Positions 4,451 to 60,234 of a DNA stretch of 64,000 bases are shown piece after piece; position 1 is the first letter of the stretch; each line of letters starts with the position of its first letter. Source of the stretch: an uncultured virus (IMG/VR IMGVR_UViG_3300034110_000988). Its lineage: Duplodnaviria; Heunggongvirae; Uroviricota; Caudoviricetes. The position numbers and the translations under genes are program-made. The DNA is taken from the IMG/VR virus record IMGVR_UViG_3300034110_000988; one strand, given 5' to 3'. The notes beneath the pieces are model-generated. The model ran no database searches. It had not been told where the DNA came from and saw nothing but the letters and a program-made list of their open reading frames with translations.

Positions 4451-5128
4451 ATGAACAGTAATTTTATTAAAGAAGTTTTCTGGAAAAATGACCTGACTTA
4501 TCTGTGTCTCACTTTTCCATTGGTTCTTTTTTTAATCAAAGAGCAATCAATTTTTTTGATAATGCCGATTGCCATTATTGTTTCATTACTCTTGGCTTTT
4601 TCTTGGCATGCTTCATTAGAGAAACGTTACATTTTTAATTCTTTGATGAAATTTCATTTTCTTGTTGGGATTATCTTGACTGGTTTTCATTTCATTCCAA
4701 CAACAGATACAAGTATGAAATTTATTTATAGCAGTATGGATATGATTTTTATATCTTTTTATAGCACGTATGTTTTCATGAATTCATATTGTTTAGCTGA
4801 AAATGCAAATGAACATTATGAAGGTGAGTATCATCCAGAACTAGAAGACACTTATCGAGAGAATGCTTATCGCCGTAGTATTTACAGTATTATGAAATGG
4901 AATAATACTATTCAGTATCAATATGACAAAGACATTGATACTTACTTGCTTCATAGTCAGCTTTATGAAAATATTGCTCATTTCCGGTTTGGTTTTCGTA
5001 TTATAAATGTCGGGAAAGGTGAAATATCATGTCTTCATGATTACATTTCCTACTTGCATGAAAATGGCATGTATTCAAATAAAATGAATACTGCTGAATT
5101 TGCGGTTTTTAAAATGTATTCTATTTGA
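4451..5128 (+). CDS. membrane protein with C-terminal MxxI motif
   Basis: AGGAG RBS; 4 TM segments; ends VFKMYSI. Confidence 0.75.
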   Translation: MNSNFIKEVFWKNDLTYLCLTFPLVLFLIKEQSIFLIMPIAIIVSLLLAFSWHASLEKRYIFNSLMKFHFLVGIILTGFHFIPTTDTSMKFIYSSMDMIFISFYSTYVFMNSYCLAENANEHYEGEYHPELEDTYRENAYRRSIYSIMKWNNTIQYQYDKDIDTYLLHSQLYENIAHFRFGFRIINVGKGEISCLHDYISYLHENGMYSNKMNTAEFAVFKMYSI

Positions 5129-5145
5129 TTTTCTTGGAGTTTTTT

Positions 5146-5496
5146 ATGATAAAATTAATGATTTCAGTCATTTCTTTGCCTATTTTATTAGGGCTTTACT
5201 TTTTGTATCTATTCAATCAACCAAATATTCCTGATGTTGTACTCTCTAATATATCTAAAGTTTATGAGGTTGTTAAAATACGTCATCCGAAACATTTTAA
5301 TGTCGATCTTCTGGATGTTGAAAATGGGAATATTTACCGTTCTCTTTATATATCAAAACATTGTGCATATTCTTACAATTTAAAGCTTCATAGTCGTTGG
5401 TCTTTTAATGAAGTTTTATATGAAAGTAAAGAAGGGGTTCGTTACAAGAAAATTGAAGGCGTTGACTCTTTATGTAAACAGCTAAAAGACAAATAG
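5146..5496 (+). CDS. membrane-anchored paralog of 4056..4394
   Basis: N-terminal TM segment; shared motif and Cys pair. Confidence 0.75.
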   Translation: MIKLMISVISLPILLGLYFLYLFNQPNIPDVVLSNISKVYEVVKIRHPKHFNVDLLDVENGNIYRSLYISKHCAYSYNLKLHSRWSFNEVLYESKEGVRYKKIEGVDSLCKQLKDK

Positions 5497-5613
5497 ATTT
5501 TTATACATTAAAATATTAAGATTGACAAAATTAGTTAATTTAATTTCAGTGAAAGATTAATGTTGACTTATTTCTTATATTTTTCTATAATCAGGGCGTT
5601 AATCGGAGGATTT

Positions 5614-6453: not shown

Positions 6454-6519
6454 CTTCGATTAGTTTTAATAACGAAAAAGAAAGACACATCATTGTGTCT
6501 TTTTATTTTCTTCGACTAA

Positions 6520-7236
6520 TTATTGTTTTTCTAAGCTTACATATGTGCCTACACGACGACCAATAGCAATAGATGATAGATTGCCTTTCCCCATTACATC
6601 GCACACCACAATAGGAATATTAAAGTCTTTACACATTGTAAATGCTGTCATGTCCATGACTTCTAAGTTCTGGTCGATGGCTTCTTTAAAAGTTAAGGTA
6701 TCGTATTTAACAGCGTCTGGGTATTTGTTGGGGTCTTTATCATAAATGCCGTCTACTTTCGTGGCTTTAATGATAATATCGCAGTTGAGTTCTTGTGCTT
6801 TCAGACTGGATGCTGTGTCGGTGGTAGAGAAAGGGTTCCCGGTACCGGCTGATAAAATGACAATACGTTTCTTACTGAGGTGTTTCATGGCTTTCAATCG
6901 TATGAAAGGTTCAGCAACTTGGTTTACCCCTATGGCTGTCATTACACGGTTTTCAATGCCTTTAGACTTCAAAACATCCTGCAGATACAATCCATTCATA
7001 ACAGTGGCTAACATACCCATGTAATCAGCCGTGGCTGGATCAACGCCATGACCATTTAAACTTTTACCTCGACAGATGTTCCCGCCGCCGACCACAATAG
7101 CAATTTCTACACCCATTTTATGAATGCTGGCAATTTCGTTTACAATTGCATTGACCGCTTCTTTGCCATATCCAAATTTCTCATCTCCCATCAGGGATTC
7201 GCCGCTTAACTTTAACAAGATACGATTATATTTCAT
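6520..7236 (-). CDS. pyrH: UMP kinase
   Basis: RILLKLSGE, VVGGGN, ADYMGMLAT, GTGNPFSTTD, KATKVDGIYD.DP, VMDMTA. Confidence 0.97.
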   Translation of the reverse strand: MKYNRILLKLSGESLMGDEKFGYGKEAVNAIVNEIASIHKMGVEIAIVVGGGNICRGKSLNGHGVDPATADYMGMLATVMNGLYLQDVLKSKGIENRVMTAIGVNQVAEPFIRLKAMKHLSKKRIVILSAGTGNPFSTTDTASSLKAQELNCDIIIKATKVDGIYDKDPNKYPDAVKYDTLTFKEAIDQNLEVMDMTAFTMCKDFNIPIVVCDVMGKGNLSSIAIGRRVGTYVSLEKQ

Positions 7237-7386
7237 AAATTTTCCTCAGAATTGTTTTCGATATAATACATTGTTTGATGACTATCGTCAATTATAAATA
7301 AACACTTTTTTCAACCATTTTGATTGCTTCGTTTAGCGTTTTTTGGTATAATCCTATTCTTACTCATTATTGCATAGGTAGCTAAA

Positions 7387-7833
7387 ATGGCTCTCAGCAT
7401 TGAACAAACGAAAGTATTGATTACACTGGTCGATAACAGTTTCACTTGTATTGCAAATGAACGTAAGCGTCTTTGTTCCCTTCTTGATAATGACTATTAT
7501 AATGAGTCTATAAACAAAAAAGATACACTTCAATTCATTAATGATAGTTCTAATAAGAAAATGTTGGCATGCCTTACTTTCAATGAATTGGCTGCTGTTC
7601 TTCCAGTGGATGAAGAATTTATTGATGGAATGCATTCAGACTCTTTTAATATTATCCTCGAATGTATTAATAAGAACATTAAACTGTTGCAAAAAGAACG
7701 TAACAGTGTTGATGACATTAAAACATTTGTTTCACCAGAAGTATTAAAAATTATCAAAAATTCTTTTGATAAAAAAGTAATCCAGTTAGAAGAAATAAAA
7801 AACAATATGAATTCAATGTTCAGTTATTTATAA
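7387..7833 (+). CDS. hypothetical protein
   Basis: ORF after TGGTATAAT promoter. Confidence 0.7.
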   Translation: MALSIEQTKVLITLVDNSFTCIANERKRLCSLLDNDYYNESINKKDTLQFINDSSNKKMLACLTFNELAAVLPVDEEFIDGMHSDSFNIILECINKNIKLLQKERNSVDDIKTFVSPEVLKIIKNSFDKKVIQLEEIKNNMNSMFSYL

Positions 7834-8732: not shown

Positions 8733-9215
8733 ATGGAACTCATTGAAGATTTGACCGAAGAACAAATTATTGCTCAAGCCGAGATGAACTCCCGGCCAGA
8801 TGATGCTCCTTATTATTACATGTACAGCATTCTTCGCACTGACATTCATATGCTTGAAGGCAAAATGCTCTCGCAGTCTGGTCATGCCTTCACCGATTCT
8901 TTGTTAGCTGCACAGAAAAAGAAACCCGAAGTGTGTGATCAGTATCGTGCATGGTGTAACGAACACCGGGACGCCTTCAATGGTGGTGCTAAGGTCAACA
9001 TGAAAGCCAAAAACAGTTCTCAACTGGTGAAGGCATATAATATTGCTCGAAAGGCTGGTATTCCTTGTGCGATTGTTGTTGATCGTGATCATATCCATCC
9101 GCCACACTTCAATGGTCAATTGATTATTACTGCTCTTGGTCTTGGGCCTTGTACTCAGGAAGAAGCTTATCAAATTACGAAACGATTCACTTGTATTCAG
9201 GATAAGTTGAAATAA
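8733..9215 (+). CDS. pth2: peptidyl-tRNA hydrolase, Pth2 family
   Basis: ILRTDI.M..GKM.SQ.GHA, AKV.MK, IVVD, TALGLGP motifs. Confidence 0.88.
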   Translation: MELIEDLTEEQIIAQAEMNSRPDDAPYYYMYSILRTDIHMLEGKMLSQSGHAFTDSLLAAQKKKPEVCDQYRAWCNEHRDAFNGGAKVNMKAKNSSQLVKAYNIARKAGIPCAIVVDRDHIHPPHFNGQLIITALGLGPCTQEEAYQITKRFTCIQDKLK

Positions 9216-9268: not shown

Positions 9269-9376
9269 GGGAAACCTCTTCGGCCCTTATAACATTGCAT
9301 CGAAAACCGAGTCAGGACCGGAAGGTAGCAGCTCTATTGGTGTCAATGTGTGTAAGTCAGTTTGAAGAGGTTTTCC
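9269..9376 (+). ncRNA. ffs: bacterial small SRP RNA (4.5S)
   Basis: Helix-8 motif TCAGG-ACC-GGAA-GGT-AGCAGC within a long hairpin closed by a 15-bp stem GGGAAACCTCTTCGG/TTGAAGAGGTTTTCC, followed by a T tract. Confidence 0.92.
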
Positions 9377-9836: not shown

Positions 9837-10925
9837 ATGTTTTATAAATTTCTTACTTTTGTCAAGATATTTTTATACAGCGAAGCCTCTTTTTTTATCA
9901 AAAAAAATACGGCCAACATCTATTTTGTCAAAGCTAAAAATGGCATGAACGCTGAAATTAATATTACTGACCGAACTATGTTTGTTAAAGCATGGTCTGA
10001 TGTAGATTATGTTGCTTTTTATTATTGCACACCTATGCAATCATCAGAGCAATCATTTGATCAGTTTGTGATTGATAATATTAAAAGTTCCATTGTGTTT
10101 ACTTTACCAACTAAACAATTGAACTCGTATGTTGGCATGCACAGTCAGTTCTTTGCACGTTTTAGTACGTCTAGGTTTCCTGTTCTTTTTTTAGGCGGAA
10201 ATATTTCGTCTAAAAACTTAAAAGATGATGAATACACTTATGATTTTAATAAATTAGATGGTGTGCGTTATCCTATTGTTTATTTCACAAAGAAAAAAGT
10301 TATAAAGAATGTTTTTCGATACAATTTGAAGGCTATTAGAAAGAGTGATAAATCAAGAGTACAAAAACTCGCTTATACTGTTGATAACAGTTTGTTTCAT
10401 CTGGCGGATATAGATTCTTTTTATTCCAGCAAAACAACCTCGACTGGTGATCCCAGATTGAACTCTTGGCTGATGAATTTTAATACTAGTGATTTTTATA
10501 AATCATCTGCTAAAACTATTGGCTTGGATAATCAGCTTTTTGAACACAATAAAATAGTGTCTAAACATTTAAATCTTGAAAAAGTGTTGTTGATTAAAAC
10601 AGAAAATAAAGAATTCTGTTTTTTTGAAAAAAATAAAAGACAATTAGTGTTAAGTTATATCACTCAGGATGAAGAAAAAAAGAACATCTTAACCACATAT
10701 ACTTATAATAAAGGGAAAGTTAAGAAAAAAAATAAAAGAACCATTTCAGATGAAGTTAAAAATCATGAACTATCCATTAGTAATATGGTTATGGATAATA
10801 TTGAAACTTTAAAGCTTAAAAACCCCTCTGATACTATTATTCAACTTTTACATACATTGGATATTTCTACAACATTGCCACTTAATCAAGATGATTTACT
10901 CGTATTGGATATGCATAATATATAA
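9837..10925 (+). CDS. hypothetical protein, MxxI C-terminal family
   Basis: Long ORF ending DDLLVLDMHNI. Confidence 0.75.
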   Translation: MFYKFLTFVKIFLYSEASFFIKKNTANIYFVKAKNGMNAEINITDRTMFVKAWSDVDYVAFYYCTPMQSSEQSFDQFVIDNIKSSIVFTLPTKQLNSYVGMHSQFFARFSTSRFPVLFLGGNISSKNLKDDEYTYDFNKLDGVRYPIVYFTKKKVIKNVFRYNLKAIRKSDKSRVQKLAYTVDNSLFHLADIDSFYSSKTTSTGDPRLNSWLMNFNTSDFYKSSAKTIGLDNQLFEHNKIVSKHLNLEKVLLIKTENKEFCFFEKNKRQLVLSYITQDEEKKNILTTYTYNKGKVKKKNKRTISDEVKNHELSISNMVMDNIETLKLKNPSDTIIQLLHTLDISTTLPLNQDDLLVLDMHNI

Positions 10926-11655: not shown

Positions 11656-11895
11656 ATGCAAACAATAGAGATCTTTCTAGGTCTTCTTGATGGTAAATTA
11701 ACCAAAAATACTGAACGATTTGACCTTGATATGGTGACTAAACATGAAATGGATATCAGTAATCAAGTGATGACTAATGCTGATTATTTGAAAACTCATT
11801 ATCCATCTGATTTTATTGTTAACCGGCTGAATGAATTTGGTATCTGTTCAGATATTCCACTTAGTCTGGATGATTTGGCGATGTGTGAAATATGA
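11656..11895 (+). CDS. stand-alone copy of the C-terminal domain of 9837..10925, possibly a remnant
   Basis: HEMDISNQVM..PSD.I...L...I...PL..DDL aligns to the C-terminus of 9837..10925. Confidence 0.6.
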   Translation: MQTIEIFLGLLDGKLTKNTERFDLDMVTKHEMDISNQVMTNADYLKTHYPSDFIVNRLNEFGICSDIPLSLDDLAMCEI

Positions 11896-13553: not shown

Positions 13554-14147
13554 TCAGTATTCGTCATATTCGCCATTATATTTGTCGATGTAGTTAAAAC
13601 AAAAATCATCATTACCTTCTTCTTTTGCTCGTTCTACTTCCATTTTCAAATTATCGATAAACTCACCGAATGTAGCTTGTTGCCAGCCTAGTTCTCTTTC
13701 ATCAGACCAAATCATAAAGACGCCTTTACCATCTTTGCGTAAGTCCATGACCACATAGGCGTCATTGTCTATTAATAATGGAATTATGTGATCGCAGTCT
13801 TCTCTGCTTAGTAAATCTGGACGATCTTCTATCATTAGATAGTTTACAATGTCAAACTCATTTGCTAATTGAATTTCTTCCAACAACATCCATTCACCAT
13901 TCATTACTAGAACACCATCGTAGGTTCTGTAAAACTCAACAACATCATCTGGTAGTTTGTACCCAATGCGATCTTCCAATAATTTAATTCGGTTTTCAAA
14001 TACAAAGTAATAGTCTATATCCAGTTCTGGATCTTTTCTAAATTCATTTAACATGAACTCTCTATATGACCACGGAATAGAATGCCCCATTTTATTAAAT
14101 CTCGATTGTAATTCTCTTATAAAACCAAGCTCTTGTTCAGTTAACAT
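13554..14147 (-). CDS. SMI1/KNR4 (SUKH) family protein
   Basis: IKLLEDRIGYKLPDDVVEFYRTYDG, IIPL, YVVMDL, TFGEFI. Confidence 0.85.
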   Translation of the reverse strand: MLTEQELGFIRELQSRFNKMGHSIPWSYREFMLNEFRKDPELDIDYYFVFENRIKLLEDRIGYKLPDDVVEFYRTYDGVLVMNGEWMLLEEIQLANEFDIVNYLMIEDRPDLLSREDCDHIIPLLIDNDAYVVMDLRKDGKGVFMIWSDERELGWQQATFGEFIDNLKMEVERAKEEGNDDFCFNYIDKYNGEYDEY

Positions 14148-14998: not shown

Positions 14999-15075
14999 GT
15001 CTGCGTAGCTCAGTTGGATAGAGCATCCGCCTTCTAAGCGGATGGTCGCTGGTTCGAATCCAGCCGTAGACGCCA
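14999..15075 (+). tRNA. tRNA-Arg(TCT)
   Basis: GTCTGCG/CGTAGAC acceptor, TCCGC-CTTCTAA-GCGGA, GCCA end. Confidence 0.96.
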
Positions 15076-15092
15076 GCTTTTGTGACATCCAC

Positions 15093-15177
15093 GCCCGAGT
15101 GGTGAAATTGGTAGACGCGGGGGACTTAAAATCCCCTTCCTTACGGAGTGCCGGTTCGAGTCCGGCCTCGGGCACCA
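15093..15177 (+). tRNA. tRNA-Leu(TAA)
   Basis: GGGGA-CTTAAAA-TCCCC, long variable arm, ACCA end. Confidence 0.96.
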
Positions 15178-15640: not shown

Positions 15641-15725
15641 GCCCGGTTGGTGAAATCGGTAGACACAGAAGACTTAAAATCTTCCGACGCAAGTCGTGCC
15701 AGTTCGAGTCTGGCACCGGGCACCA
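15641..15725 (+). tRNA. tRNA-Leu(TAA), second divergent copy
   Basis: GAAGA-CTTAAAA-TCTTC, long variable arm, ACCA end. Confidence 0.95.
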
Positions 15726-15792: not shown

Positions 15793-16533
15793 ATGTCGCT
15801 AGATTTAGCCAACCACATTGTTGATGTCATCATGGCTTGTGAAGATCCTTCATCGAGTGAGATTGCACTGAAGGTTTTTCAAGACCGTTCAACTTCAATG
15901 TCAGATGTCAAATGTCATAAGTTGGACCGTATAAATCCTTGCCTATCTGGGTATAGTAATTTATTTACATGTCATAATGACATTCCTTTTTATTGCTTAT
16001 TTTCGTTGGATATATCAGTAGATTTGACAACTTTTTTCAAGCTTGTTGCTGACCCATCTCGTTCGGTTTTTGACTCTGGTCAACATTGTATCCAATCAAA
16101 TATTGTATGGTTTCAAACAATAATTAATCGTTTGAAAGATCAATCAGGCAATGCATTGTTTGAAGAACTCTATCAATCAGTCTTGATTGACTTTTCAATT
16201 AAGTTCTCAAGCGATGTCGGAGAAATTCTTTTAAATTTTTCTAAACATTCTCTTTATCTTGGTAAAAATATTCATTTTGAACTTCATTTGGACATGTTTG
16301 GGAATTTAAAATCAGTTAATTTTCGTTCATATACTTACAATGATAATTATCAAACTGACATTATTAAGAAATTTAAACCAGAAAACCAGATCGTAGCTTT
16401 TCATCTATTCTTGTCTTATTATTGTTATCCACTTGTTCATCAAGAGCTTGATAGTTTAATTGATATCTCGATGGAACTTAATGACAACAACTTACATAAT
16501 TATGAAAATATTATGAATATGATTAAAATTTAA
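15793..16533 (+). CDS. hypothetical protein, MxxI family
   Basis: GAGG RBS; ends ENIMNMIKI. Confidence 0.75.
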   Translation: MSLDLANHIVDVIMACEDPSSSEIALKVFQDRSTSMSDVKCHKLDRINPCLSGYSNLFTCHNDIPFYCLFSLDISVDLTTFFKLVADPSRSVFDSGQHCIQSNIVWFQTIINRLKDQSGNALFEELYQSVLIDFSIKFSSDVGEILLNFSKHSLYLGKNIHFELHLDMFGNLKSVNFRSYTYNDNYQTDIIKKFKPENQIVAFHLFLSYYCYPLVHQELDSLIDISMELNDNNLHNYENIMNMIKI

Positions 16534-17775: not shown

Positions 17776-18090
17776 ATGAATACAGTTGCTCAAACCCTTG
17801 CTAAATTCCAAGCTGGCTTTAATCCAGAAGCCGCTGCTGGTAACGATTATATCTTCCAATTTAATGTCACTGATGACAAAACTTACTGTCTCAATATCAA
17901 AGACGGCCAGTGTACCGCTTCCGAAGGTGTGAATGAAGACGCCAACGTAACTTTGGTGACTGACTCCGCTACTCTGATGGCGATGTCGGATGGCTCTCTT
18001 GATGGTATGCAGGCTTTCATGAGTGGTAAACTGCGTATTGAAGGCGATATGATGCTGTCACTGAAACTCAATGAGATGTTCTCTAAATAA
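17776..18090 (+). CDS. SCP2 sterol/lipid-binding domain protein
   Basis: FNPEAAAG..YIFQF, DGMQAFMSGKLRIEGDMML.LKL. Confidence 0.92.
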   Translation: MNTVAQTLAKFQAGFNPEAAAGNDYIFQFNVTDDKTYCLNIKDGQCTASEGVNEDANVTLVTDSATLMAMSDGSLDGMQAFMSGKLRIEGDMMLSLKLNEMFSK

Positions 18091-21563: not shown

Positions 21564-21637
21564 GCGGAATTGGCATAGTGGCTGTGCTCCAGCCTTCCAA
21601 GCTGGCTACACGAGTTCGATCCTCGTATTCCGCTCCA
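21564..21637 (+). tRNA. tRNA-Gly(TCC)
   Basis: GCGGAAT/ATTCCGC, CCAGC-CTTCCAA-GCTGG, TCCA end. Confidence 0.95.
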
Positions 21638-23259: not shown

Positions 23260-23646
23260 ATGAATATCAAACGTATGAACATTCAGTTTTACATGGAAGA
23301 CGAAGATATGCTTGAAGACCTTGTGGAAGATAGTCAACGCAATGGTCGCTATCTCCAGATTGATCCGATTGTTCATCGGGATGGTGTTTTTAAACGTGGG
23401 AAAGACTGTTGGTTTGAAATTCGTGGTCAAGCATTCACCTACGACAGTAAAATGTTTGACTTTGAGTTTAGTTTGCTGGATGTTCCATCACTTTCTACAA
23501 GTCAGTTCCAAGCTTTGAAAATGGTCATTGACCAAAAACTGGCAAGTGTTGAACAAAAGAAACTTTACCAGACGATTTCTTATAATTTGGAAGATTTACA
23601 GAAACGCTTGGAAATTTATAAATCGAATAAACAATTTGGTATTTAA
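23260..23646 (+). CDS. hypothetical protein, paralog of 3611..4045
   Basis: Shared motifs with 3611..4045. Confidence 0.8.
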   Translation: MNIKRMNIQFYMEDEDMLEDLVEDSQRNGRYLQIDPIVHRDGVFKRGKDCWFEIRGQAFTYDSKMFDFEFSLLDVPSLSTSQFQALKMVIDQKLASVEQKKLYQTISYNLEDLQKRLEIYKSNKQFGI

Positions 23647-25681: not shown

Positions 25682-26149
25682 ATGACACTAGCCACTGAAT
25701 TGAAAAAAATCAAGAAAATTCCTTACAAAGTTGCTGGTATCTCTGAAAAACTGGCAATGATTGAAGCTTTGCTGGTTAATGACACATCCCTTCATAAGTG
25801 GTGGGTGGCGAATATAGTTTTCGACCGAACTCGTATGAGTAAGTCTGTGCTGTCTTGCGATGTTAAATACCAAATTCAATACCATCTTAACAACGTGGAT
25901 TGCACTCTTAGTGCTAAAGCTGATGCCGTGAGTTCACTGGTGGCTAATTATGAGCAGTTTGTTGATGTGGATTTACTTGTCAAAGAAGTTTTTGGTGATC
26001 TCTATCCAGCTATCATTGAGCAAATCAACCAGAATAAAATTGAACATGAAGAATTTCAGGAACGGATTCAAACTATACCTGCCAACTCAACAATGACTGA
26101 TGTTGCGGCAGTAATGTTACAAGTACAAGAAGACATGAAAAAAATCTAA
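25682..26149 (+). CDS. hypothetical protein (ends EDMKKI)
   Basis: ORF after promoter. Confidence 0.7.
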   Translation: MTLATELKKIKKIPYKVAGISEKLAMIEALLVNDTSLHKWWVANIVFDRTRMSKSVLSCDVKYQIQYHLNNVDCTLSAKADAVSSLVANYEQFVDVDLLVKEVFGDLYPAIIEQINQNKIEHEEFQERIQTIPANSTMTDVAAVMLQVQEDMKKI

Positions 26150-27769: not shown

Positions 27770-27869
27770 TTTTTGTTCTCAAATAAACCGCCTTCTTGGC
27801 GGTTTTTTGTTGCTTAATAGGTTCTTTCTTGTTATAATGGCTCCATCAAACATCATAGGAATTACGACC

Positions 27870-39624: not shown

Positions 39625-40299
39625 GTGCCTATGAACAATATTCAACCTTCAATGTTTCAACAATATCAGAAAAATAAAGATAATGTTATTGATTTTGTTC
39701 CATTCTTAGAACAGAAAAACCATGCTACAACTGTTATCAGAAATATTGCTCAGACCATCTTCGAACAATTTGGTTGTGGTTCTCTTTTTAATGATGACTG
39801 CATTAAAAATTTTGGTGTAATGTCTAATCCAGCAAATTTTAAAATTACACTGTCGAATTTTCAACCAACTAAATCTATTTTTGCTTTCCTATCCAGTATT
39901 CGTAGAGGCCATTTTTTAAGTGTTAGTAATGAATGCACCTTTTCTACTGATGGATTTGGTAGGTTATTTGATATTAAAGTTTCTTATAGTTTTGTGGAAC
40001 GTATTAATTCAGGATTCATTGGAAATAAGATTTTTATCTCTTTTGACAGTCACTTTGATATTAGTGAAATTCGTTATCAACGGATTAATGAACGTCGAGA
40101 ATTACTGGATTCGATTTCTAAAACAAAAGACATGCTGTGTTCTCTGGATCATGAAACACTATTCCTTGAATTGTTCATGAATGATAATAACCTTGACTTA
40201 AAAGAACTTTTTCCAGCATTCTTTGAATATGGCCCTCACGTTTTTAATACGGATGAGATTGAAGCTAATAGCACTCTGGCTAGGATGTTGTTGATTTAA
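39625..40299 (+). CDS. hypothetical protein, MxxI family
   Basis: Ends STLARMLLI. Confidence 0.75.
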   Translation: MPMNNIQPSMFQQYQKNKDNVIDFVPFLEQKNHATTVIRNIAQTIFEQFGCGSLFNDDCIKNFGVMSNPANFKITLSNFQPTKSIFAFLSSIRRGHFLSVSNECTFSTDGFGRLFDIKVSYSFVERINSGFIGNKIFISFDSHFDISEIRYQRINERRELLDSISKTKDMLCSLDHETLFLELFMNDNNLDLKELFPAFFEYGPHVFNTDEIEANSTLARMLLI

Positions 40300-42220: not shown

Positions 42221-42874
42221 ATGAAAAAAATTAAAACGTTGTTCGTGATTGACCGTAACACCGATATGGCTACCGATGTGCTGACTGCTGGTGCAGAGTG
42301 GGTTATTCGTGGCGAAGGTAAAGCAACCATCAAGTTTGACGGTTCTTCTGCCTACTTTGCTGAGGGTAAGTTGTTCAAACGCTTTGACCGTAAATTGAAG
42401 TCTAACTTCTCTAAGATGGCTCGTAGCATGGGCGACAAGTTTGTGCCAGAAGATCACATGTTTAACGAAGTTCCAGAAGGTGCTATTCCTTGCGAAGCGG
42501 CTCCTGCAGCTCACAGTCTTCACTTCCCACACTGGGTTCCAGTTGGTGACGGCCCAGAAGACAAGTTCCATCGTGAAGCTCTGGAAAATGCGGGTGATCT
42601 TAAAGATGGTGCAACTTATGAGTTGGTTGGCCCAAAAGTTAATGGTAATCCATACAAACTGGAACGCCATGAGTTGTGGGAACATGGAAGTGTTGATTTT
42701 GAAGTGACTGACTTTACCTTTGAAGGGCTTAAAAAACTCTTTGCTGAGAAGTTGGTTAATGAGGAAGGCTTGGTGTTCCATCACCCAGACGGACGCATGA
42801 TTAAACTCAGAAACAAAGACTTTTCGTTTGCAACTTTCGGTAAATTTGACGAACGTAGTAAAAAGAAAAAATGA
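42221..42874 (+). CDS. ATP-dependent RNA ligase-like protein (DUF5565 type)
   Basis: KFDG motif I, TYELVGPKVNGNP, EGLVFH, MIKLR. Confidence 0.85.
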   Translation: MKKIKTLFVIDRNTDMATDVLTAGAEWVIRGEGKATIKFDGSSAYFAEGKLFKRFDRKLKSNFSKMARSMGDKFVPEDHMFNEVPEGAIPCEAAPAAHSLHFPHWVPVGDGPEDKFHREALENAGDLKDGATYELVGPKVNGNPYKLERHELWEHGSVDFEVTDFTFEGLKKLFAEKLVNEEGLVFHHPDGRMIKLRNKDFSFATFGKFDERSKKKK

Positions 42875-42975: not shown

Positions 42976-43602
42976 ATGAACCTTCCAGTTATGCTTATCA
43001 TGGTTGGCATTTTTCAAATTTTGAGTGTGTTTTGGGAACATAAACGGCCACGATCTGTTACAGAATTTAAGATTAGTTGGTCTATTATCACACAAATTTT
43101 CTTGTCAGTATTGGCTTTGTCAGAATACTTGACGTTTTGCACCTTCTATACAAGCTATTTGTTGGCTTTTGCTCTATTGATGGCAATGCTGAACTTCATA
43201 GGTCACTTTATAAAATATAGCTGTTTCCTTTGGAAGTCTAAATTTCATCCTCATTTCAATAAAAATCACGCAGATGTCATATTTTACCTTAATTTGAGAA
43301 TTAGACAATTATGTTCAGTTGATAAAATTTCTCAAACGTTCTTTTACAAAAACGATGGTTTAACCATTTTCTTTGGAGATCCAGATAAACACTTTTCGGT
43401 CCTGAGTGAAACCCTTTTACAATTATTCAAAAACAATTTGACTGCTTGTACAATGGCTAATATTGACTTTGGTAGTTTTGTGATCGTTAAAGACAAAGAA
43501 AACTATATTTCATTGTCATCTGATGAATTAAAGACCTTAGATATTCCTTTAACTGGCATTGATCGAAATTATTTGGCATTAATTGAAATGTCAAGAATAT
43601 AA
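42976..43602 (+). CDS. membrane protein, MxxI family
   Basis: 3 N-terminal TM segments; ends LALIEMSRI. Confidence 0.75.
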   Translation: MNLPVMLIMVGIFQILSVFWEHKRPRSVTEFKISWSIITQIFLSVLALSEYLTFCTFYTSYLLAFALLMAMLNFIGHFIKYSCFLWKSKFHPHFNKNHADVIFYLNLRIRQLCSVDKISQTFFYKNDGLTIFFGDPDKHFSVLSETLLQLFKNNLTACTMANIDFGSFVIVKDKENYISLSSDELKTLDIPLTGIDRNYLALIEMSRI

Positions 43603-47887: not shown

Positions 47888-48670
47888 ATGATGACCGACA
47901 ATCAAAACACGATGGTGATGTTGACCGAAAAGTTCTTGGCTGAACATTTCCCTAATGACCCACATGATATTCGTCCAGTTGGACCTGAGTTTGCTGTTGA
48001 TGTGGGCGTCGAAGGCAATCTTAAATTGTCTTTTCGTATTGTAGGTCATAGTGTCTACAATGTCGTTATTCATCAGGATCATTTTGATACCATCCTGCCT
48101 CTGTTTGGTGTGAATGATTACAAACCAGAATCAAGCAACATCATCAATCAGTTTTTTGAAAGCATCAACAATAATGAATCCTTTCAGCAGGTGTTCAATC
48201 CTATTCCGATGGTTGATTTCAGTAAACACCTGACAGTTGACTCTAAGTTTGACGATGTATACAAAGACATTTATGACGCTGATAAAAAGATTTCACTGAC
48301 CACTCAGACAGGTGTCATTAAACGCCAAGGGTATGCACAGTTCTCGTTCCGATTTACCAAAGACAATCGTATGAAATGTTTGTCTACCGTTGGTTTTTTC
48401 TATGGGGAACTTGATAATTATCTGTTCGGGGTTGGTTTTGACCTCGATAATCAAAAAGTTCACAACATCAACAATCAAGTGACTATCTATGAGGACTTTT
48501 TCCTTGATAACAAAGAATTCAATTTTGAAACTGACATAGATGCGTTTGTTGTCAACTTTTTGAATGATTGGATTATTCACTTTCACAAAGATCGTCCAGA
48601 TGTTTCATTCATTCCTGATGAAGTCTCGTTTAAAGATAAAGTGGAACTGTTTAAAATGATTGCGATTTAA
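47888..48670 (+). CDS. hypothetical protein, MxxI family
   Basis: Ends VELFKMIAI. Confidence 0.75.
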   Translation: MMTDNQNTMVMLTEKFLAEHFPNDPHDIRPVGPEFAVDVGVEGNLKLSFRIVGHSVYNVVIHQDHFDTILPLFGVNDYKPESSNIINQFFESINNNESFQQVFNPIPMVDFSKHLTVDSKFDDVYKDIYDADKKISLTTQTGVIKRQGYAQFSFRFTKDNRMKCLSTVGFFYGELDNYLFGVGFDLDNQKVHNINNQVTIYEDFFLDNKEFNFETDIDAFVVNFLNDWIIHFHKDRPDVSFIPDEVSFKDKVELFKMIAI

Positions 48671-49442: not shown

Positions 49443-50090
49443 TTAGAACATTATCATTTCTATTATATCATTAACTTCTTTACCACTAAGCAATGAAAAA
49501 TCATTATAATTTTTAATATAATAGCTAATATGATTTATATTTTTAAAGTTTATTTTTTTAACGTCTATTCCATTAATAGATTCTACACTTACTATTGTCC
49601 AATCATAATCCAATATGTTTAAACTATTTGATTGTATGTGTATATAATTATCTTTACTTAGAAAAGTAAAACAATTAGATTCTTTAAAAGTCAGATAACA
49701 ACAACTATTTCTGTTTATCTTGTTTTCATATTCTTTAAAATATCCATCAACCATCATGACTATCCATGCATGATTTTCAATAGCATTCGGATTTATTCTT
49801 TCATTTTTTACAATAGGATAATTCATTCCGGGTAAAATACTTAAATACTCTTTTAACTTTTCAGCTTTGTGAGTAAAAGTAAAATCAACGATATGTTCTA
49901 AATTTATTCCTTCTGGCATTTCTTTTTCATCTAGCATGCATTTTAAAAAATAAAAATATCTATAAATCCATACTACATGACTTGTATTTTGTACGGGTTC
50001 ATCTAACCATTTTACAAAATTCATTAAACTAACGATTTCTAATTTATTCCTAAGTTCTTCTTGTACAATATTTTCCATAAATTTTTCCAT
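49443..50090 (-). CDS. hypothetical protein, MxxI-like end
   Basis: Ends DIIEMIMF. Confidence 0.7.
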   Translation of the reverse strand: MEKFMENIVQEELRNKLEIVSLMNFVKWLDEPVQNTSHVVWIYRYFYFLKCMLDEKEMPEGINLEHIVDFTFTHKAEKLKEYLSILPGMNYPIVKNERINPNAIENHAWIVMMVDGYFKEYENKINRNSCCYLTFKESNCFTFLSKDNYIHIQSNSLNILDYDWTIVSVESINGIDVKKINFKNINHISYYIKNYNDFSLLSGKEVNDIIEMIMF

Positions 50091-55010: not shown

Positions 55011-55550
55011 TTGAATAAACAGGCCCATCTCACTTTTTTCTCAAGGCTTCGTATTTTAGAAAAAATTGACATCTCACATTCTATTGATATCAGTGGCTTA
55101 TATATAGATCTTTTATTTTTATATTCGAAATTGATTGATAACAACTTTATTTTTGATATTAAAACTGTTACTTATGAAGATTTGATTGAATTTGAAAAAG
55201 ATTCTCAACATAAAGTTATCAAACCTTTAAATAAAAGGTCAGTTCAAGGTCTATTAATTTGGCTTAAAAAAATATATGCATTTGAACATGACGTTAAATC
55301 AGATTACGAAGGAAAACCTGTATTGTTTTCTAACTCTGATTTAAGTTTGATTATTACTGATAAAAACATTTCAGTTAAATTTTTCATTGATGGTAATTTG
55401 TTGCGTTATCATTCTTATAGCGTTGATGGTGTTGAACATCTTATTGAAGACTCTATTTTGATGAAACACTCTACTTTCTCACGTTTCATCTCAAATATTG
55501 TTGAGTATCATGCTTGCGAAAAATCTGTTCTTACAATGGTATTGTATTGA
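55011..55550 (+). CDS. hypothetical protein, MxxI-like end
   Basis: Ends SVLTMVLY. Confidence 0.65.
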   Translation: MNKQAHLTFFSRLRILEKIDISHSIDISGLYIDLLFLYSKLIDNNFIFDIKTVTYEDLIEFEKDSQHKVIKPLNKRSVQGLLIWLKKIYAFEHDVKSDYEGKPVLFSNSDLSLIITDKNISVKFFIDGNLLRYHSYSVDGVEHLIEDSILMKHSTFSRFISNIVEYHACEKSVLTMVLY

Positions 55551-55917: not shown

Positions 55918-57762
55918 ATGAATTTGAAAGAAAGTTTACGAACTATTGAGAAAGCTACCAGTCGTGTTGTCGATACAGGTTGGGAGACTTTATATGGAGA
56001 TCGTTTAAATTATAATGAAATGTATTTTATACCTCATTTAAAAAACAATAAAGCTAATAGAAAAATGGCTCAGGTGCCTCTACTATCGGATACGATTACT
56101 AAATTATCCGACTGTGTTGAAACTATCAAAAACACTGATATTCATTCATTCAGTACAGTTGCTGAAATCAATCTCTATGGTTCCCACGTATACCCTTCTG
56201 AGATGGATAAACAGAACATCACTAAACGGACATTGCTCGACTATGAATCAAATAAAGCATGGCTTGATTTTTATTCTGCTGAAATGAGTGGATCTCGTGC
56301 ATTTGATGAAGATCTGTCAGATTACCTTGAAGATCAAGTTATCGCTATTAATCGTATAGCTGAACAACTGGAAAAGCAACATGTTAATATTAATAAGTTT
56401 TTAATGTTTAACTACACCGTGACTAATCAGTTGTCTATTTCATTGCAACATGAAGAAGATAGAGCTTACGTTGCTGAATCCGCTATCAACTACATTACCA
56501 ACAATCTTCCAGACATCGAAGCTTTTAAATCCTTATATGCAGACTATGTGGCTGCTAATGATAAGTTTTTAACCGATGTTAAAGCGGAACTCGTTAAAAT
56601 CAATCCAGACACCTTTGTTACGAATGCTGACTTGTTTATATCAACCTTGGCGAAGAACAGTGGTACTAATGCTGTCGAAGGATTCTTGATTGAAAAAATG
56701 TTGACAGACGACTCTGTTATTACTTCTGTTGATTTTACTGCAGGACAAGCTATTAATAAGGCCATTCTTTTTGATGATGCGAGTATTGCTTATAAACAAG
56801 ATGGTCAATACCATACATTCAAAGACAACCAAAGTCTTGATAATTTCATGTATACGCTAAACCATAGTGCTCTTTCTTACATATTAAGAAAAAAGCCAAC
56901 CACTATTCCTTTTTTCAAAGAAAAATTAATAGAAGACAAAAATTACAATAACGCCATTAGTGCAGCTACATCGTTTATTGATAATTACACTGTTTTGAAA
57001 CAATATAACTATGATCTCAATTCTTTCAAAGATAAAAGTTTTGAAGCCATTGATGATGAAATTAACCATGTTGTTGACAAGAACAAAATTAAACAATATG
57101 CATTTAGTATTCTTAGTTCTAAAAATAAACACTTATTTAATGATGAAACAGAGCCTTATTTCAAAGCATTGTTTGACAACAATGTAACGACATCACAACT
57201 CCAAACGTTTGTAGGCAAAAAACTGGCAGCTCTACATTCTAACGGAGACGTTATTACGATGTTGAACGGTATTCGTAACCATTTCGATGGATTTACTCAG
57301 GAAGCTCTAACGTTGAAATTAGAAGCTTTTGCTATTGAAAAATTACATGACCAAGACAATGTGGTTACTTTTGCTGTTGCTAATTACGTTCAATGTGAAG
57401 CGTTAGGATCAACATCTTGGTGTATTGTTCGAGATCAAGAATACTACGATCAGTATGTTACTGACCATCGTAATATCCAGTATATGATGTATGACTTCAA
57501 CAAACCATCCACTGACATCAATTCTATGATTGGCTTCACTGTAGACCGTTCTGGGGCTATTTATGCTGAACACTTGAAAAATGATGATGCTATTCATTCA
57601 TATAGCAAAGATGAACAATTGACGCATATACAAACCAATACTATTTATCAAAACAGAAAGAACCATAAATTATCAGAAGAAACCCTATTTGCAATGGAAG
57701 AAACTCTGGGCATTCAGGATGTTGTCAAAAACACTAAACCTTTAAAAATGAGAAATATATGA
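55918..57762 (+). CDS. large hypothetical protein A (G.TSWCI domain), copy 1
   Basis: Paralog of 60284..62116; LGSTSWCIVRD..Y..QY, MIGFTV. Confidence 0.85.
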   Translation: MNLKESLRTIEKATSRVVDTGWETLYGDRLNYNEMYFIPHLKNNKANRKMAQVPLLSDTITKLSDCVETIKNTDIHSFSTVAEINLYGSHVYPSEMDKQNITKRTLLDYESNKAWLDFYSAEMSGSRAFDEDLSDYLEDQVIAINRIAEQLEKQHVNINKFLMFNYTVTNQLSISLQHEEDRAYVAESAINYITNNLPDIEAFKSLYADYVAANDKFLTDVKAELVKINPDTFVTNADLFISTLAKNSGTNAVEGFLIEKMLTDDSVITSVDFTAGQAINKAILFDDASIAYKQDGQYHTFKDNQSLDNFMYTLNHSALSYILRKKPTTIPFFKEKLIEDKNYNNAISAATSFIDNYTVLKQYNYDLNSFKDKSFEAIDDEINHVVDKNKIKQYAFSILSSKNKHLFNDETEPYFKALFDNNVTTSQLQTFVGKKLAALHSNGDVITMLNGIRNHFDGFTQEALTLKLEAFAIEKLHDQDNVVTFAVANYVQCEALGSTSWCIVRDQEYYDQYVTDHRNIQYMMYDFNKPSTDINSMIGFTVDRSGAIYAEHLKNDDAIHSYSKDEQLTHIQTNTIYQNRKNHKLSEETLFAMEETLGIQDVVKNTKPLKMRNI

Positions 57763-59195
57763 AAAAAGCGACTGCAGAAGATTTTTTAACTTTACTTGAT
57801 GATTTCAAATTATCCAATAATATCACGGATACTAACTTTGACTATTATGCAACCTTGAAATTTTGTAGGTCTACATTTTTGAATGATTTTTATGATATTT
57901 CTCTTGTGAAAACAGACTCTCAACAATATCCTATTTTATTGCAAATGAATGGTAAAGCACTTGTTTTTAAAATGAAAGATGCTAATTTTGCTGGTATTTC
58001 TGAGGATGAAATCAAGAATGTTGTGCCTTTTTTGACAAAAAAAGACTATTCTCATGTCAGTCATCTAAACACTATATTAAAAGAGAGCACATCGTTTAAA
58101 TCGTTTGTTGATAATATTAATACTGTATTTGGTGAAGGGTTTGATTTACATGATTTAAGTGGTGTTTCGAAAAATATCATGGCTTTTAATATTGCTGATA
58201 CACTTAATACATTAGTGAAAAAATTAAAAGATGTAGATGTAAAAGATTATGATATCAAATATTCATTACAAATATTAGAAGATGACTTATCTTCGGATAT
58301 ATTTATTGGACGTGGGATTGACGTATCACAAATGTCACATGATTTTAAGCGTTATGTTTCGCCTAACCAAAGTGGCTATTCAGGTGATACAGAAACTTAT
58401 TATGATAGCTTAATGGAAAAATATTATAAACACTTAGATCAGTATTTTGATTTGTTTAAATTTCAGCAGACGTTAAAAACAGGAATTATGCTTAATTCAA
58501 CAACTGATGAAAAACTATTAGACACACCATTATTAAATGAGTTTATTACCATTGTTAAAGCTAACCAACCAACTTGGTTTCAGTCGTTTGATGAATCAAT
58601 GGTTCACTCAAGGACCGATGATAACGCTATTAGAGCCGCTGGCACACCTTTGATTGATAAGAGTGCTGACTTTGATTTGATTAATTCTATATTGTGTCGA
58701 GCAAGTGTTTATCCATCCACTATAGATGGATACACTAATGTTTCAGAAATTTTTATGAAAGAAGATACTAACTCAGTTCATTTGTATGGAGATAATGTAT
58801 TCTTTAAACCTTATTACCATAACCTTATTATCAAGGAAAAAGAAAATCTAAATATTTGCACTTATATTCATTCTGAAATGGGCTTGTCTTTAAGTGATGA
58901 TATGAAATTCAGCTTCCTTTTACCTGTATTGGATTATTTAGAAAAAAATAAAATAATTCTTGATTTAGCTGATAGTAATGATTATTACTTAACTTTCTTG
59001 AATTATATAAAGAAGGAAGATCTATCAGCACTTATAAAAGAAAAATACCCTAATCTTATCTTTTTAAACTTTGATAAAGACCTTAAAAAATCTATTGAGA
59101 TTAGTCATGCAACGTCTTTTAAGGATGCATTGAAAATCTATAAGCAAGATGAGAAACCAACGCCTAAAACGACTAAATTAAAAAACGCCTTGTAA
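57759..59195 (+). CDS. hypothetical protein B, copy 1
   Basis: ATGA overlap with A; paralog of 62113..63519. Confidence 0.85.
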   Translation: MKKATAEDFLTLLDDFKLSNNITDTNFDYYATLKFCRSTFLNDFYDISLVKTDSQQYPILLQMNGKALVFKMKDANFAGISEDEIKNVVPFLTKKDYSHVSHLNTILKESTSFKSFVDNINTVFGEGFDLHDLSGVSKNIMAFNIADTLNTLVKKLKDVDVKDYDIKYSLQILEDDLSSDIFIGRGIDVSQMSHDFKRYVSPNQSGYSGDTETYYDSLMEKYYKHLDQYFDLFKFQQTLKTGIMLNSTTDEKLLDTPLLNEFITIVKANQPTWFQSFDESMVHSRTDDNAIRAAGTPLIDKSADFDLINSILCRASVYPSTIDGYTNVSEIFMKEDTNSVHLYGDNVFFKPYYHNLIIKEKENLNICTYIHSEMGLSLSDDMKFSFLLPVLDYLEKNKIILDLADSNDYYLTFLNYIKKEDLSALIKEKYPNLIFLNFDKDLKKSIEISHATSFKDALKIYKQDEKPTPKTTKLKNAL

Positions 59196-59271
59196 GGTGT
59201 TTTTTTATAGCTAATGTTTTCATTTCATGCTATACTGCCACAATATTTTATTTATCTACAGGTACGGTGGC

Positions 59272-60234
59272 ATGCTTAACGACTATATCGAAAACATTCA
59301 ATATATTGTTTCGGATCGCAAGCGGGGTGATACCTTTCTAGCGAATAATGCCGTTTTTCGATTGCCATGTCTATATCCACGACAATTGGCCGAGTATCAC
59401 AATAACCCGTCGATGGTTATTGAAGCATTGCTTAAACCTATTCTTGAAAGCGAACCTAGTGAATTCATGGTCGTTTCTGATTTTGTGAGCCATAATTCCG
59501 TTTATACGCTTTACACTGTTAAAACTGATAACATTTCAAAAGTTCTTACTTTATTTGCTGATGAACAACTTAGAATCGCTCAACAAAATGATTTGATTAT
59601 TCGCACAGAATTTTCTAATTTTTTTGAGAATTTTTTTGAAGAATTCTTTGTAGCTGACGATTTCAAAGAGAAGTTTTTCACTGACTTAAAGACAAAAAGT
59701 GTATCGACCGATTTTCGTGTTTCTGGATCTCTTGCCCCTAATAGATTTATAGAAAAGTCTAATTTTTATTTAGTTGACATTAATATTAAATTTACGCCAG
59801 AACATGAAGCGTTTTTGCGAAATGTATTAAATATTAAAACGACATTTAAACTCTTATATCGTGGATATGTCTCATTTAATGGTGACTTTACTGTCCGTGA
59901 GTTTAATTTGAAGTTGTTTTCAGAAAATGATCTTCATCGTGAACATCTCGAATACTCTCGTTCATCACCAACGTATGGTTTCATTAGGTCTACAAAAAAA
60001 GCACATCCTTATGTGTATGATAAAAATCCAAAATCATTTTTTACTCTTTTTAAGAAAGAAGATTATAAATTGACCTTGTATGAACTTTTGAAATTTCACA
60101 ATGACTCAGACACACTTGCAAAATACACTGCAATGTTTCCTGAGTTATACTGTCCATCAGCGTATGATTTCGCCAATCTATCTCTGGACGAATGGGATAC
60201 TCGTTTTATACTTCAAGACATGATTGATATTTAA
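59272..60234 (+). CDS. hypothetical protein, MxxI family
   Basis: Ends FILQDMIDI; C-terminus similar to 39625..40299. Confidence 0.75.
   Translation: MLNDYIENIQYIVSDRKRGDTFLANNAVFRLPCLYPRQLAEYHNNPSMVIEALLKPILESEPSEFMVVSDFVSHNSVYTLYTVKTDNISKVLTLFADEQLRIAQQNDLIIRTEFSNFFENFFEEFFVADDFKEKFFTDLKTKSVSTDFRVSGSLAPNRFIEKSNFYLVDINIKFTPEHEAFLRNVLNIKTTFKLLYRGYVSFNGDFTVREFNLKLFSENDLHREHLEYSRSSPTYGFIRSTKKAHPYVYDKNPKSFFTLFKKEDYKLTLYELLKFHNDSDTLAKYTAMFPELYCPSAYDFANLSLDEWDTRFILQDMIDI

Follow-up and report, generated by a model that had tools for sequence, protein, structure and literature searches.

The window, meaning the whole stretch of 64,000 nucleotides that was analysed, is part of the genome of an uncultured Rak2-like jumbo phage, and its DNA is AT-rich. 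A eukaryotic giant virus was set aside as a source because Shine-Dalgarno-like GGAG/GAGG sequences precede the starts, PHROG matches are present, and the region is syntenic with phage CBB; a Borg-like element was rejected, as tandem-repeat arrays are absent. The gene set comprises 106 ORFs of at least 60 residues, obtained by a greedy non-overlapping choice rather than as curated gene calls, and a few of them overlap tRNA genes. The sequence base consists of these 64 kb of phage plus 20.8 kb of one syntenic relative (L001), a single match from a scan of JGI metagenomes. No complete relative was found in INPHARED (megablast and tblastn), in IMG/VR with single proteins and the alignments A2, A3, and A4, or among GTDB genomes with A2 and A3. 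Alignment A5 retrieved from IMG/VR only phages as distant as CBB (30–36% identity), and a search of the ESM Atlas gave no usable lead.

In this window, proteins of 79–362 residues, both soluble and transmembrane, end in the same short tail, with Met at position -4 and Ile, or a residue replacing it, at position -1. The carriers are the following:

4451–5128, plus strand: 225-residue membrane protein with at least two TM-like segments, ending ...AEFAVFKMYSI-stop (tail codons 5105–5125)
9837–10925, plus strand: 362-residue protein, ending ...LPLNQDDLLVLDMHNI-stop
11656–11895, plus strand: 79-residue protein, barely more than the C-terminal module, ending ...IPLSLDDLAMCEI-stop
15793–16533, plus strand: 246-residue soluble protein, ending ...NYENIMNMIKI-stop
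39631–40299, plus strand: 222-residue soluble protein (carrier 39625), ending ...NSTLARMLLI-stop
42976–43602, plus strand: 208-residue membrane protein with three TM-like segments, ending ...NYLALIEMSRI-stop
47888–48670, plus strand: 260-residue soluble alpha+beta protein, ending ...SFKDKVELFKMIAI-stop
49443–50090, minus strand: 215-residue soluble protein, ending ...KEVNDIIEMIMF-stop
55011–55550, plus strand: 179-residue soluble protein, ending ...EKSVLTMVLY-stop
59272–60234, plus strand: 320-residue soluble protein, ending ...DTRFILQDMIDI-stop

To these can be added a candidate member, a weak case, and a doubtful member:

35752–36015, plus strand: 87-residue candidate, ending ...QQMFNRMNDI-stop, which matches the h..M..h-stop pattern
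25682–26149, plus strand: 155-residue weak case, ending ...LQVQEDMKKI-stop, with polar residues at -7 (Q) and -6 (E)
55918–57762, plus strand: 614-residue doubtful member, ending ...KPLKMRNI-stop, with P at -7

The start of carrier 39625 was reset from a GTG at 39625 to an ATG at 39631 by orthologue alignment. The carriers are ORFan accessory genes located within a block of small genes, mostly on the same strand. At the thresholds used, none of them matched Pfam or PHROG (relaxing to E≤5 yields noise only), PADLOC gave no match, and no DNA-handling domain is recognisable in any of them. The 4451 gene has paralogous genes on either side (4038–4394 and 5125–5496), and 59272 sits amid two pairs of paralogous genes (55918/57759 and 60284/62113). 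The pairs of 614- and 478-residue genes by 55011 and 59272 were set aside as a candidate hub, having no family, PDB, or defence-system match; a PDB sequence search with a profile of the 614-residue paralogues also gave no match. Adjacency is the one basis for considering these pairs and the carriers a cassette, and a 368-nt gap follows 55011.

The initial annotation of this DNA had quoted twelve C-terminal endings, and all twelve were recovered exactly on translation of the ORFs. The positions given with them correspond to the gene starts (or, for 49443 on the minus strand, to the lower coordinate), where nothing similar to the motif occurs; the tails lie at the opposite gene ends, at 5128, 10925, 11895, 16533, 26149, 36015, 40299, 43602, 48670, 49443 (minus strand), 55550, and 60234. 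Each runs to the stop codon and so occupies the extreme C-terminus. An ending M..I-stop is found in 11 of the 106 ORFs of the window (4451, 9837, 11656, 15793, 25682, 35752, 39625, 42976, 47888, 59272, and 55918, the last of which was missing from the original list), whereas 0.19 would be expected from composition and 0.22 from the internal frequency of M..I (binomial 7e-16). Relaxing the last position to M..[ILVFYM]-stop raises the count to 13/106 by adding 49443 and 55011. The full pattern, [LIVFM]..M..[ILVFYM]-stop, occurs in 10/106 ORFs versus 0.28 expected (P=4e-13). The hydrophobic -7/-6 positions of the proposed consensus are not matched by 25682 and 55918, which are doubtful. Outside the gene set, 828 frames run at least 30 codons from stop to stop, and only 2 of them end in M..I. 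When every pair of residues in the last seven positions was scanned without bias, Met at -4 with Ile at -1 came out on top (p=6.7e-16), the runner-up being at about 1e-5. The shared C-terminal tail is therefore confirmed as a real observation; all these enrichment figures refer to the 64-kb window.

Selection on the tail works at the protein level, since the final Ile is written as ATT, ATA, or ATC, the stop as TAA or TGA, and the hydrophobic positions -7 and -6 with many different codons, while the DNA downstream of the tails is not conserved and the spacing to the following gene differs between carriers. Replacements within the tail are conservative for the amino acid (Ile to Val, Phe, or Tyr) and not for the nucleotide. 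Orthologues, compared for four of the ten core carriers, bear the same feature. In the 39625 family, Arg-Met at -5/-4 is present in 21/21 members, and the last residue is Ile in 12, Val in 8, and Phe in 1. In the 47888 family, which spans from 92% identity down to E=2e-5, Met at -4 is retained in 33/36 and Ile at -1 in 31/36 members, with one extra residue beyond the Ile in 2/36; columns K251, M257, and I260 belong to the best-conserved positions of this protein, and the tail is conserved behind a variable linker. The L001 orthologues of 49443 and 55011 end in IMEMLMY and VLKMALY, respectively. The gene for 42976 is missing from L001. The doubtful 55918 has an L001 orthologue ending in KPLKMRTI and a paralogue (60284) ending in KPLKMRVA. 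In several families and over a wide clade, the tail has been kept far longer in evolution than the rest of the sequence, and it has retained its place at the extreme C-terminus. The initial interpretation is thus supported in part: a constant tail, under purifying selection, does sit on varied soluble and transmembrane bodies, while target-binding adaptors and a hub (protease, virion, or export machinery) would be hypothetical.

A constant, conserved C-terminal tail on variable bodies is how a docking or address peptide would be expected to look, and the reading favoured here, to which about an even chance is given, is that of a short peptide of this kind read by one common putative partner. 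The tail would form an amphipathic helix roughly 12 residues long, in many cases preceded by a linker containing Pro and by an S/T/N/D-x-x-D/E helix cap, with an aliphatic residue at -7, a hydrophobic one at -6, a polar one at -5, Met at -4, two free positions, and Ile (rarely Phe, Tyr, or Val) at -1. The Rak2-like jumbo phage lineage would have added this tail to ten or more accessory proteins that are otherwise unrelated and include two membrane proteins, and the partner would read the Met, the Ile, and the free terminus, bringing every carrier to the same place or fate. We infer the existence and nature of this partner and, hence, the function of the tail.

An unlikely but live rival holds that the carriers are one old, fast-evolving paralogous superfamily, in which the M-x-x-I helix, as the structural element conserved best, packs intramolecularly and is a relic of descent, not a portable signal. 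A 55-residue homologous C-terminal module is indeed common to 9837 and 11656 (42% identity over the last 55 residues, BLASTP E=1.6e-9), the tail helix of 11656 being about three residues shorter. In addition, the motif FP.(F/L)....F noted at the outset upstream of the tails of 39625 and 59272 is present in both, although its spacing had to be corrected, with seven residues before the last F rather than four (FP.[FL]x7F). Against common descent, all-against-all BLASTP of the bodies detected only the 9837/11656 module. Profiles tell the same: an HMM of family A2 matched no other carrier, hhalign of A2 against A3 gave no match (probability 0.1), and HMMs built from the C-terminal 17, 45, or 61 residues of the 47888 family failed to match the other carriers.

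In favour of the superfamily, the AlphaFold models of the 47888 and 39625 families are both alpha+beta, with an N-terminal helix, a beta-meander, and C-terminal helices, and in both the C-terminal half consists of a 5–6-stranded meander followed by 3–4 helices, the tail being last. Their weak PDB neighbours partly overlap: 4h62_Q and 4akr appear in the VIA lists of both models, and 4hbr, 4fr9, and 9tpm are listed by Foldseek for one model and by VIA for the other. The initial claim that the N-terminal parts are unrelated holds for sequence, as judged by BLASTP, HMM, and hhalign searches; the folds may be related. However, Foldseek searches of the models against the PDB and BFVD gave no match at E≤0.001, and the best VIA-align matches reach Z 5.8 (Med17C; the C-terminal domain of T4 MotA is at Z 5.3–5.7) and Z 5.9 (Omp33). 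Naming the fold after Med17C, MotA, or Omp33 was rejected, given that every match falls below Z 6, a class that the tool rates as common arrangements. Given the similar order of elements in the two models, the bodies may share a common ancestry. The tail helix is confidently placed in the model of the 47888 family (pLDDT about 87), which is what keeps an intramolecular structural role in play; this helix could pack against its own protein rather than hang free. In the model of the 39625 family, the tail region is poorly modelled (pLDDT 40–46). The strict C-terminal place and the near-invariant Met and Ile would be untypical of a purely structural helix, and the spread of the carriers from 79 to 362 residues, with or without TM segments, fits a single superfamily poorly.

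If the tail is instead a docking peptide, its partner might be the gp45-type sliding clamp of the phage itself; as clamp-binding peptides, the tails would then tether many accessory proteins to phage DNA. This appears quite unlikely. According to PMC2988020, T4 gp43, gp55, and gp33 carry interchangeable C-terminal clamp-binding epitopes on divergent linkers; these T4-family epitopes are short, C-terminal, and hydrophobic-acidic, and the C-terminal 11-mer of RB69 gp43 is the ligand crystallised with the clamp gp45. The RB69 DNA polymerase ends in SLFDMFDF, where L, F, D, and M fill positions -7 to -4 and the residue at -1 is hydrophobic, a register that matches LQDMIDI, VLDMHNI, and IIEMIMF, and the family-B polymerases encoded by Rak2-like phages are T4-like, with a conserved tail at the C-terminus. 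Nevertheless, of the 120 PolB tails retrieved from jumbo phages, most have an aromatic-rich ending of the [LFM]-F-x-[FW] type, and in none of the ten core tails are -3 and -1 both aromatic. The genes for the DNA polymerase, clamp loader, and late transcription factors of the phage lie outside the window, and with the CBB polymerase as query, none of the 120 matches listed could be attributed to this clade. A polymerase-type tail is found on only 2 of the 571 ORFs of CBB, compared with about 10% of the ORFs of the window bearing the tail described here. The clamp also sits badly with two carriers that are integral membrane proteins and with the lack of a recognisable DNA-handling domain in the carriers, as well as with the analogous tag of the megaphage LR756502 (see below), which lies on ORFans. 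A predicted complex between the RB69 clamp, a stand-in from another phage used with no alignments, and the last 45 residues of 59272 scored 0.02 against a mark of 0.34, which speaks neither for nor against the clamp.

A shared C-terminal degron, through which accessory or host-takeover proteins would be handed as a cohort to a single protease or unfoldase (FtsH, ClpXP, or Lon of the host, or else an adaptor of the phage) and removed on time, is considered improbable. Non-polar C-terminal tails can act as degrons, and the hydrophobic ending at the extreme C-terminus would suit this role, as would its presence on ORFan accessory proteins from a block of small genes that lie mainly on one strand, and on soluble and membrane proteins alike. 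The known degron classes include ssrA-like LAA and MuA-like basic tails of the RRKKAI type, and the tails resemble neither of these, though other degron classes or phage-specific adaptors may apply. Moreover, that Met and Ile hardly vary and keep a fixed spacing suggests a specific pocket over general hydrophobicity. Finally, chance, base composition, or a DNA- or RNA-level signal overlapping gene ends (a promoter, terminator, ribosome-binding site, or mini-ORF) can be virtually dismissed: ATG plus AT[TAC]-TAA is cheap in an AT-rich genome, and the final codons of 55918 run into the start codon (ATG) of the gene that follows, yet the scarcity of the ending in shadow frames and the variation in codons, stops, and downstream sequence described above argue against it.

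The docking-peptide reading gains in generality from other huge phages. No M..I-stop tail is found among the 571 ORFs of the whole genome of the related phage CBB, nor among the 90 of its region syntenic with the window (the tRNA region), and the published 642-kb megaphage LR756502 has none in 938 ORFs. However, 40 of these 938 ORFs have an ending L..[LIM]G[ILV], versus 0.3 expected, with the consensus h-R-[DN]-x-K-L-x-x-[LI]-G-I at the stop codon. The tagged proteins gave no BLASTP match over 780 pairs, 39 of the 40 are without a Pfam match above the cut-off, and the Arg, Leu, and Gly of the tag come from synonymous codon families. The tag is carried by 19% of the ORFs in the terminal regions, and its carriers cluster in small-gene blocks. 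Thus, this is a different sequence in a different phage, but alike in being a lineage-specific C-terminal peptide under protein-level selection on dozens of small ORFans with unrelated bodies. It backs the generality of the phenomenon and does not account for its mechanism. Since CBB is without M..I tails and LR756502 has a different tag, C-terminal tags appear to be lineage-specific. Because CBB lacks the tag and the different one of LR756502 sits in the same kind of genes, the partner of the tail described here is probably phage-encoded. No published description of lineage-specific C-terminal tags in huge phages was found in literature listings.

That a second megaphage has a comparable tag of another sequence suggests lineage-specific address tags as a general organising principle of huge phages. 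It is possible, at somewhat less than even chances, that huge phages run private addressing, in which each lineage puts its own tag on many ORFans (h-h-x-M-x-x-I here, K-L-x-x-L-G-I in LR756502) and encodes a dedicated receptor. If so, the receptor would gather, sort, package, or destroy the tagged proteins as a cohort, and the tag would be a handle to find this receptor and to list the whole cohort of a phage from sequence alone. Most giant-phage genes are ORFans that offer no handle for study, and a shared C-terminal peptide would link at least ten of them functionally and provide an experimental hook for pull-downs, tail swaps, and GFP fusions. The identity of the reader would tell whether such cohorts are delivered, compartmentalised, loaded on DNA, or destroyed on schedule.

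Among known systems, SspB-type adaptors have a substrate-binding body that varies and is joined by a flexible linker to a short, constant C-terminal peptide for docking on the unfoldase ClpX, the same architecture as in the initial proposal that the carriers are adaptors, although the SspB tail is basic/aliphatic and unlike M-x-x-I. T4 internal proteins are sent to the prohead by a capsid targeting sequence, which likewise is a short peptide on unrelated proteins with one destination, but it is N-terminal and cleaved off, and membrane proteins would not be expected as its cargo. The term "capsid targeting sequence" occurs in PMC5694885 and PMC7411985. The clamp-binding tails of T4 and RB69 may be regarded as the nearest known analogue: going by PMC2988020, they too are short hydrophobic/acidic extreme C-termini on unrelated bodies with divergent linkers, several clients sharing one hub, and the RB69 gp43 tail LFDMFDF shares the -7/-6/-5/-4/-1 register, including Met at -4. 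Their aromatic signature at -3 and -1 is replaced here by Ile at -1 and a free -3, and whereas their clients are few and handle DNA, the tail of the window is borne by about 10% of the ORFs, all of them ORFans and two of them membrane proteins.

Ten proteins of the window, named by their gene starts (4451, 9837, 11656, 15793, 39625, 42976, 47888, 49443, 55011, and 59272), hold a common C-terminal tail and represent the core carriers of this motif. Numbered from the stop codon, with -1 as the last residue, their tails present an aliphatic residue at -7, a hydrophobic one at -6, a polar one at -5, Met at -4, two variable positions, and Ile, Phe, or Tyr at -1. In front of this stretch stands an S/T/N/D-x-x-D/E helix cap, in many tails together with a proline located 12 to 29 residues from the end. 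All the endings quoted in the initial annotation (VFKMYSI, VLDMHNI, IMNMIKI, LARMLLI, LIEMSRI, LFKMIAI, LQDMIDI, IIEMIMF, VLTMVLY, QEDMKKI, FNRMNDI, and LAMCEI) were found by ORF translation exactly at the gene end; the positions listed with them bear no motif and correspond to gene starts (in the case of 49443, which is on the minus strand, to the lower coordinate of the gene). Besides the core tails, 35752 fits the pattern and is a candidate member, but 25682 misfits at -7 and -6 and is a doubtful member, as is 55918, another protein with an M..I ending that misfits at the same positions. In 11656 the tail helix is about three residues shorter, but homology to 9837 covers the last 55 residues (42% identity, E=1.6e-9).

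These endings are far more frequent than chance would allow. The count was made on 106 ORFs of at least 60 aa, chosen greedily and without overlap; the set is uncurated, and a few of its members lie over tRNA genes. Of the 106, 11 end in M-x-x-I versus 0.19 to 0.22 expected (binomial 7e-16). The broader M-x-x-[ILVFYM] is found at the end of 13/106 ORFs, and [LIVFM]-x-x-M-x-x-[ILVFYM]-stop in 10/106 versus 0.28 expected, while only 2 of the 828 open non-gene frames used as a control end in M-x-x-I. When all residue pairs of the last seven positions were scanned, Met at -4 with Ile at -1 ranked first (p=6.7e-16); the runner-up pairs reached about 1e-5 and in several cases belong to the same motif, as with Leu at -7 or -6 and Met at -4. 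At the DNA level, the Ile is encoded by ATT, ATA, or ATC, both TAA and TGA serve as stop, many codons are used for the hydrophobic residue at -7, and neither the sequence downstream nor the spacing to the following gene is constant. Therefore, the constraint acts on the protein.

The tail is also maintained in relatives, with data covering the orthologues of four of the ten core carriers. The 12 homologues of 47888 first compared (38 to 92% identity) all end in K-x-x-L/F-x-x-M-x-x-I, with M257 and I260 invariant. A profile search of this family against 1.84 billion cluster representatives yielded 32 clusters at E<=0.001; among 36 full-length aligned sequences, Met is found at -4 in 33 and Ile at -1 in 31, and two hold one extra residue. 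In a subset of 27 sequences filtered at 70% identity, few columns anywhere in the protein are as well conserved as K251, M257, and I260. In the 39625 family (21 sequences, 47 to 97% identity), R-M is invariant at -5/-4, and the last residue is I in 12, V in 8, and F in 1. A 20.8-kb syntenic metagenome locus of the same clade, which together with the 64 kb of the window makes up the clade sequence analysed, shows 78% identity over the 47888 orthologue and keeps the tails as LARMLLV, LFKMIAI, IMEMLMY, and VLKMALY; the 42976 gene is missing from it.

The bodies bearing this tail had been described as unrelated, and at the sequence level this is so, the module shared by 9837 and 11656 excepted. 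All-against-all BLASTP revealed no other similarity between carriers, the HMM of one family alignment (A2) matched no other carrier, its hhalign comparison with a second family (A3) gave a probability of 0.1, and HMMs of the C-terminus of the 47888 family, covering its final 17, 45, or 61 residues, found none of the other carriers. Both soluble and membrane proteins are represented, as proposed, with transmembrane-like segments in 4451 and 42976 and in none of the rest.

The best-supported reading is that the tail is a predicted docking peptide. The free C-terminus of each carrier would be recognised by one pocket, since Met and Ile are near-invariant at a fixed spacing from the terminus, C-terminal extensions are almost absent, and only conservative replacements occur. 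That the tail sits on bodies unrelated to one another points to a single reader, which would serve all carriers. The constant tail on variable bodies noticed in the initial annotation is seen; its docking on one hub is a prediction. Two other roles fit equally well, in which the tail would either mark a cohort of accessory proteins for degradation, as a degron, or direct their packaging or sorting.

The main alternative that does without docking is that all carriers belong to one superfamily, diverged very far, in which the tail is a terminal helix with a structural role. Structure models were made for two carrier families. For the 47888 family, AlphaFold predicts an alpha+beta fold at a pLDDT of 83.8, in which residues 248-259 form a confidently modelled terminal helix. 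The 39625 family gives a weaker model (pLDDT 69.6), in which a helix at the N-terminus is followed by a beta-meander and by helices at the C-terminus, and the tail reaches a pLDDT of only 40-46. Foldseek retrieved nothing at E<=0.001 with either model, and neither matched a known fold (best VIA Z-scores 5.8 and 5.9). Because their C-terminal halves show a similar order of elements, these two bodies may share a distant common ancestor.

The window is prokaryotic-viral, with Shine-Dalgarno-like motifs upstream of its gene starts, strong PHROG matches, and about 85% of its ORFs lacking a Pfam match. Its best protein matches come from Rak2-like jumbo phages, CBB and GAP32 among them; megaphages are matched by a few genes, and the tRNA/PTH2/small-ORF region is organised as in CBB. 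The clade was not found in INPHARED, IMG/VR, or GTDB genomes; DNA of this phage or a relative occurs in lake, plant, food, dairy, freshwater, and wastewater metagenome runs, with most of it in one run only. The features of the window include:

161-487, 14999-15177, 15641-15725, 21564-21637: six tRNA genes (Gln-CTG, Leu-CAA, Arg-TCT, two Leu-TAA, Gly-TCC)
523-738 / 754-1038; 3611-4045 / 23260-23646; 4038-4394 / 5125-5496: small paralogous gene pairs, 41 to 46% identity
2157-3509: CPA1 Na+/H+ antiporter
6520-7236, minus strand: bacterial-type UMP kinase (TIGR02075, 306 bits)
8733-9215: PTH2 peptidyl-tRNA hydrolase
9276-9371, plus strand: bacterial small SRP (4.5S) RNA (Rfam RF00169, 58.6 bits versus a gathering score of 40)
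13554-14147, minus strand: SUKH-1 immunity-type protein
17776-18090: SCP2 domain protein
27807-28793: MYG1-family protein
42221-42874: RLIG1-like RNA ligase
55918-59195, 60284-63519: tandem duplicated gene pairs (614 + 478 aa, 610 + 468 aa; 53% and 40% identity)

The kinase, antiporter, hydrolase, MYG1, ligase, SUKH-1, and SCP2 genes are cell-like accessory genes in a phage setting. The SRP RNA, which would be an unusual gene for a phage, holds an intact domain IV core (GUCAGG/CCGGAAGG/AGCAGC), is flanked by the PTH2 gene and ORF 9467, and was not found in the syntenic CBB region or metagenome locus. The two Leu-TAA tRNA genes lie about 550 nt apart. Carriers 55011 and 59272 stand before the two duplicated pairs, within each of which the genes overlap by ATGA; their proteins have no family, PDB, or PADLOC match, and the C-terminal 120 residues of the larger one are similar to megaphage proteins. 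The copies 4038-4394 and 5125-5496 lie on either side of the tail-carrying membrane protein 4451. Relatives of two carriers are found on contigs of 1,858,324/1,859,102 and 1,917,244 bases, about five times a Rak2-like genome and far above the size of any known phage; such contigs could reflect concatemer assembly or chimerism, or else an element of much larger size.

The complete genome of CBB holds no M-x-x-I ending in 571 ORFs, its enriched C-terminal pairs being lysine-rich ends only, and none was found in the 938 ORFs of the published 642-kb megaphage LR756502. An unbiased scan of the latter revealed a different tag, Leu at -6 with Gly at -2 (45 observed versus 4.4 expected, p=4e-30); L-x-x-[LIM]-G-[ILV] ends 40/938 ORFs versus 0.3 expected, with the consensus h-R-[DN]-x-K-L-x-x-[LI]-G-I. 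These 40 ORFs are found mainly at 4-20 kb and 585-641 kb of the LR756502.1 record, 34 of them within its first 25 kb or final 60 kb; 39 lack a Pfam match above cut-off, and 19 overlap the next gene by ATGA. With the tail removed, no BLASTP match was obtained in 780 pairs, and Arg, Leu, and Gly are each encoded by several synonymous codon families. LR756502 thus holds a second, different C-terminal tag system, likewise on small ORFan proteins, so that tagging of this kind is seen in more than one huge phage. A limited literature search found no published description of tags of this kind. Because CBB lacks the tag and LR756502 carries another, the reader would more likely be phage-encoded than a conserved host hub.

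One such reader, suggested by analogy but unlikely, would be the phage sliding clamp. Against it, most of the 120 polymerases retrieved from jumbo phages have an aromatic-rich [LFM]-F-x-[FW]-type ending that the window tails lack, polymerase-type tails are found in only 2/571 CBB ORFs, two window carriers are membrane proteins, and none of the carriers holds a recognisable DNA-handling domain. In the window, ORF 7387-7833 (148 aa, ending NMNSMFSYL) alone has a [LFMIV]-F-x-[FWY] motif no more than two residues from its terminus, and its product is, from this polymerase-like ending, a possible clamp client. The clamp-binding tails of T4 and RB69 represent the closest known system: RB69 gp43 ends in LFDMFDF, its C-terminal 11-mer is the crystallised gp45 ligand, and the epitopes of gp43, gp55, and gp33 are interchangeable (PMC2988020).
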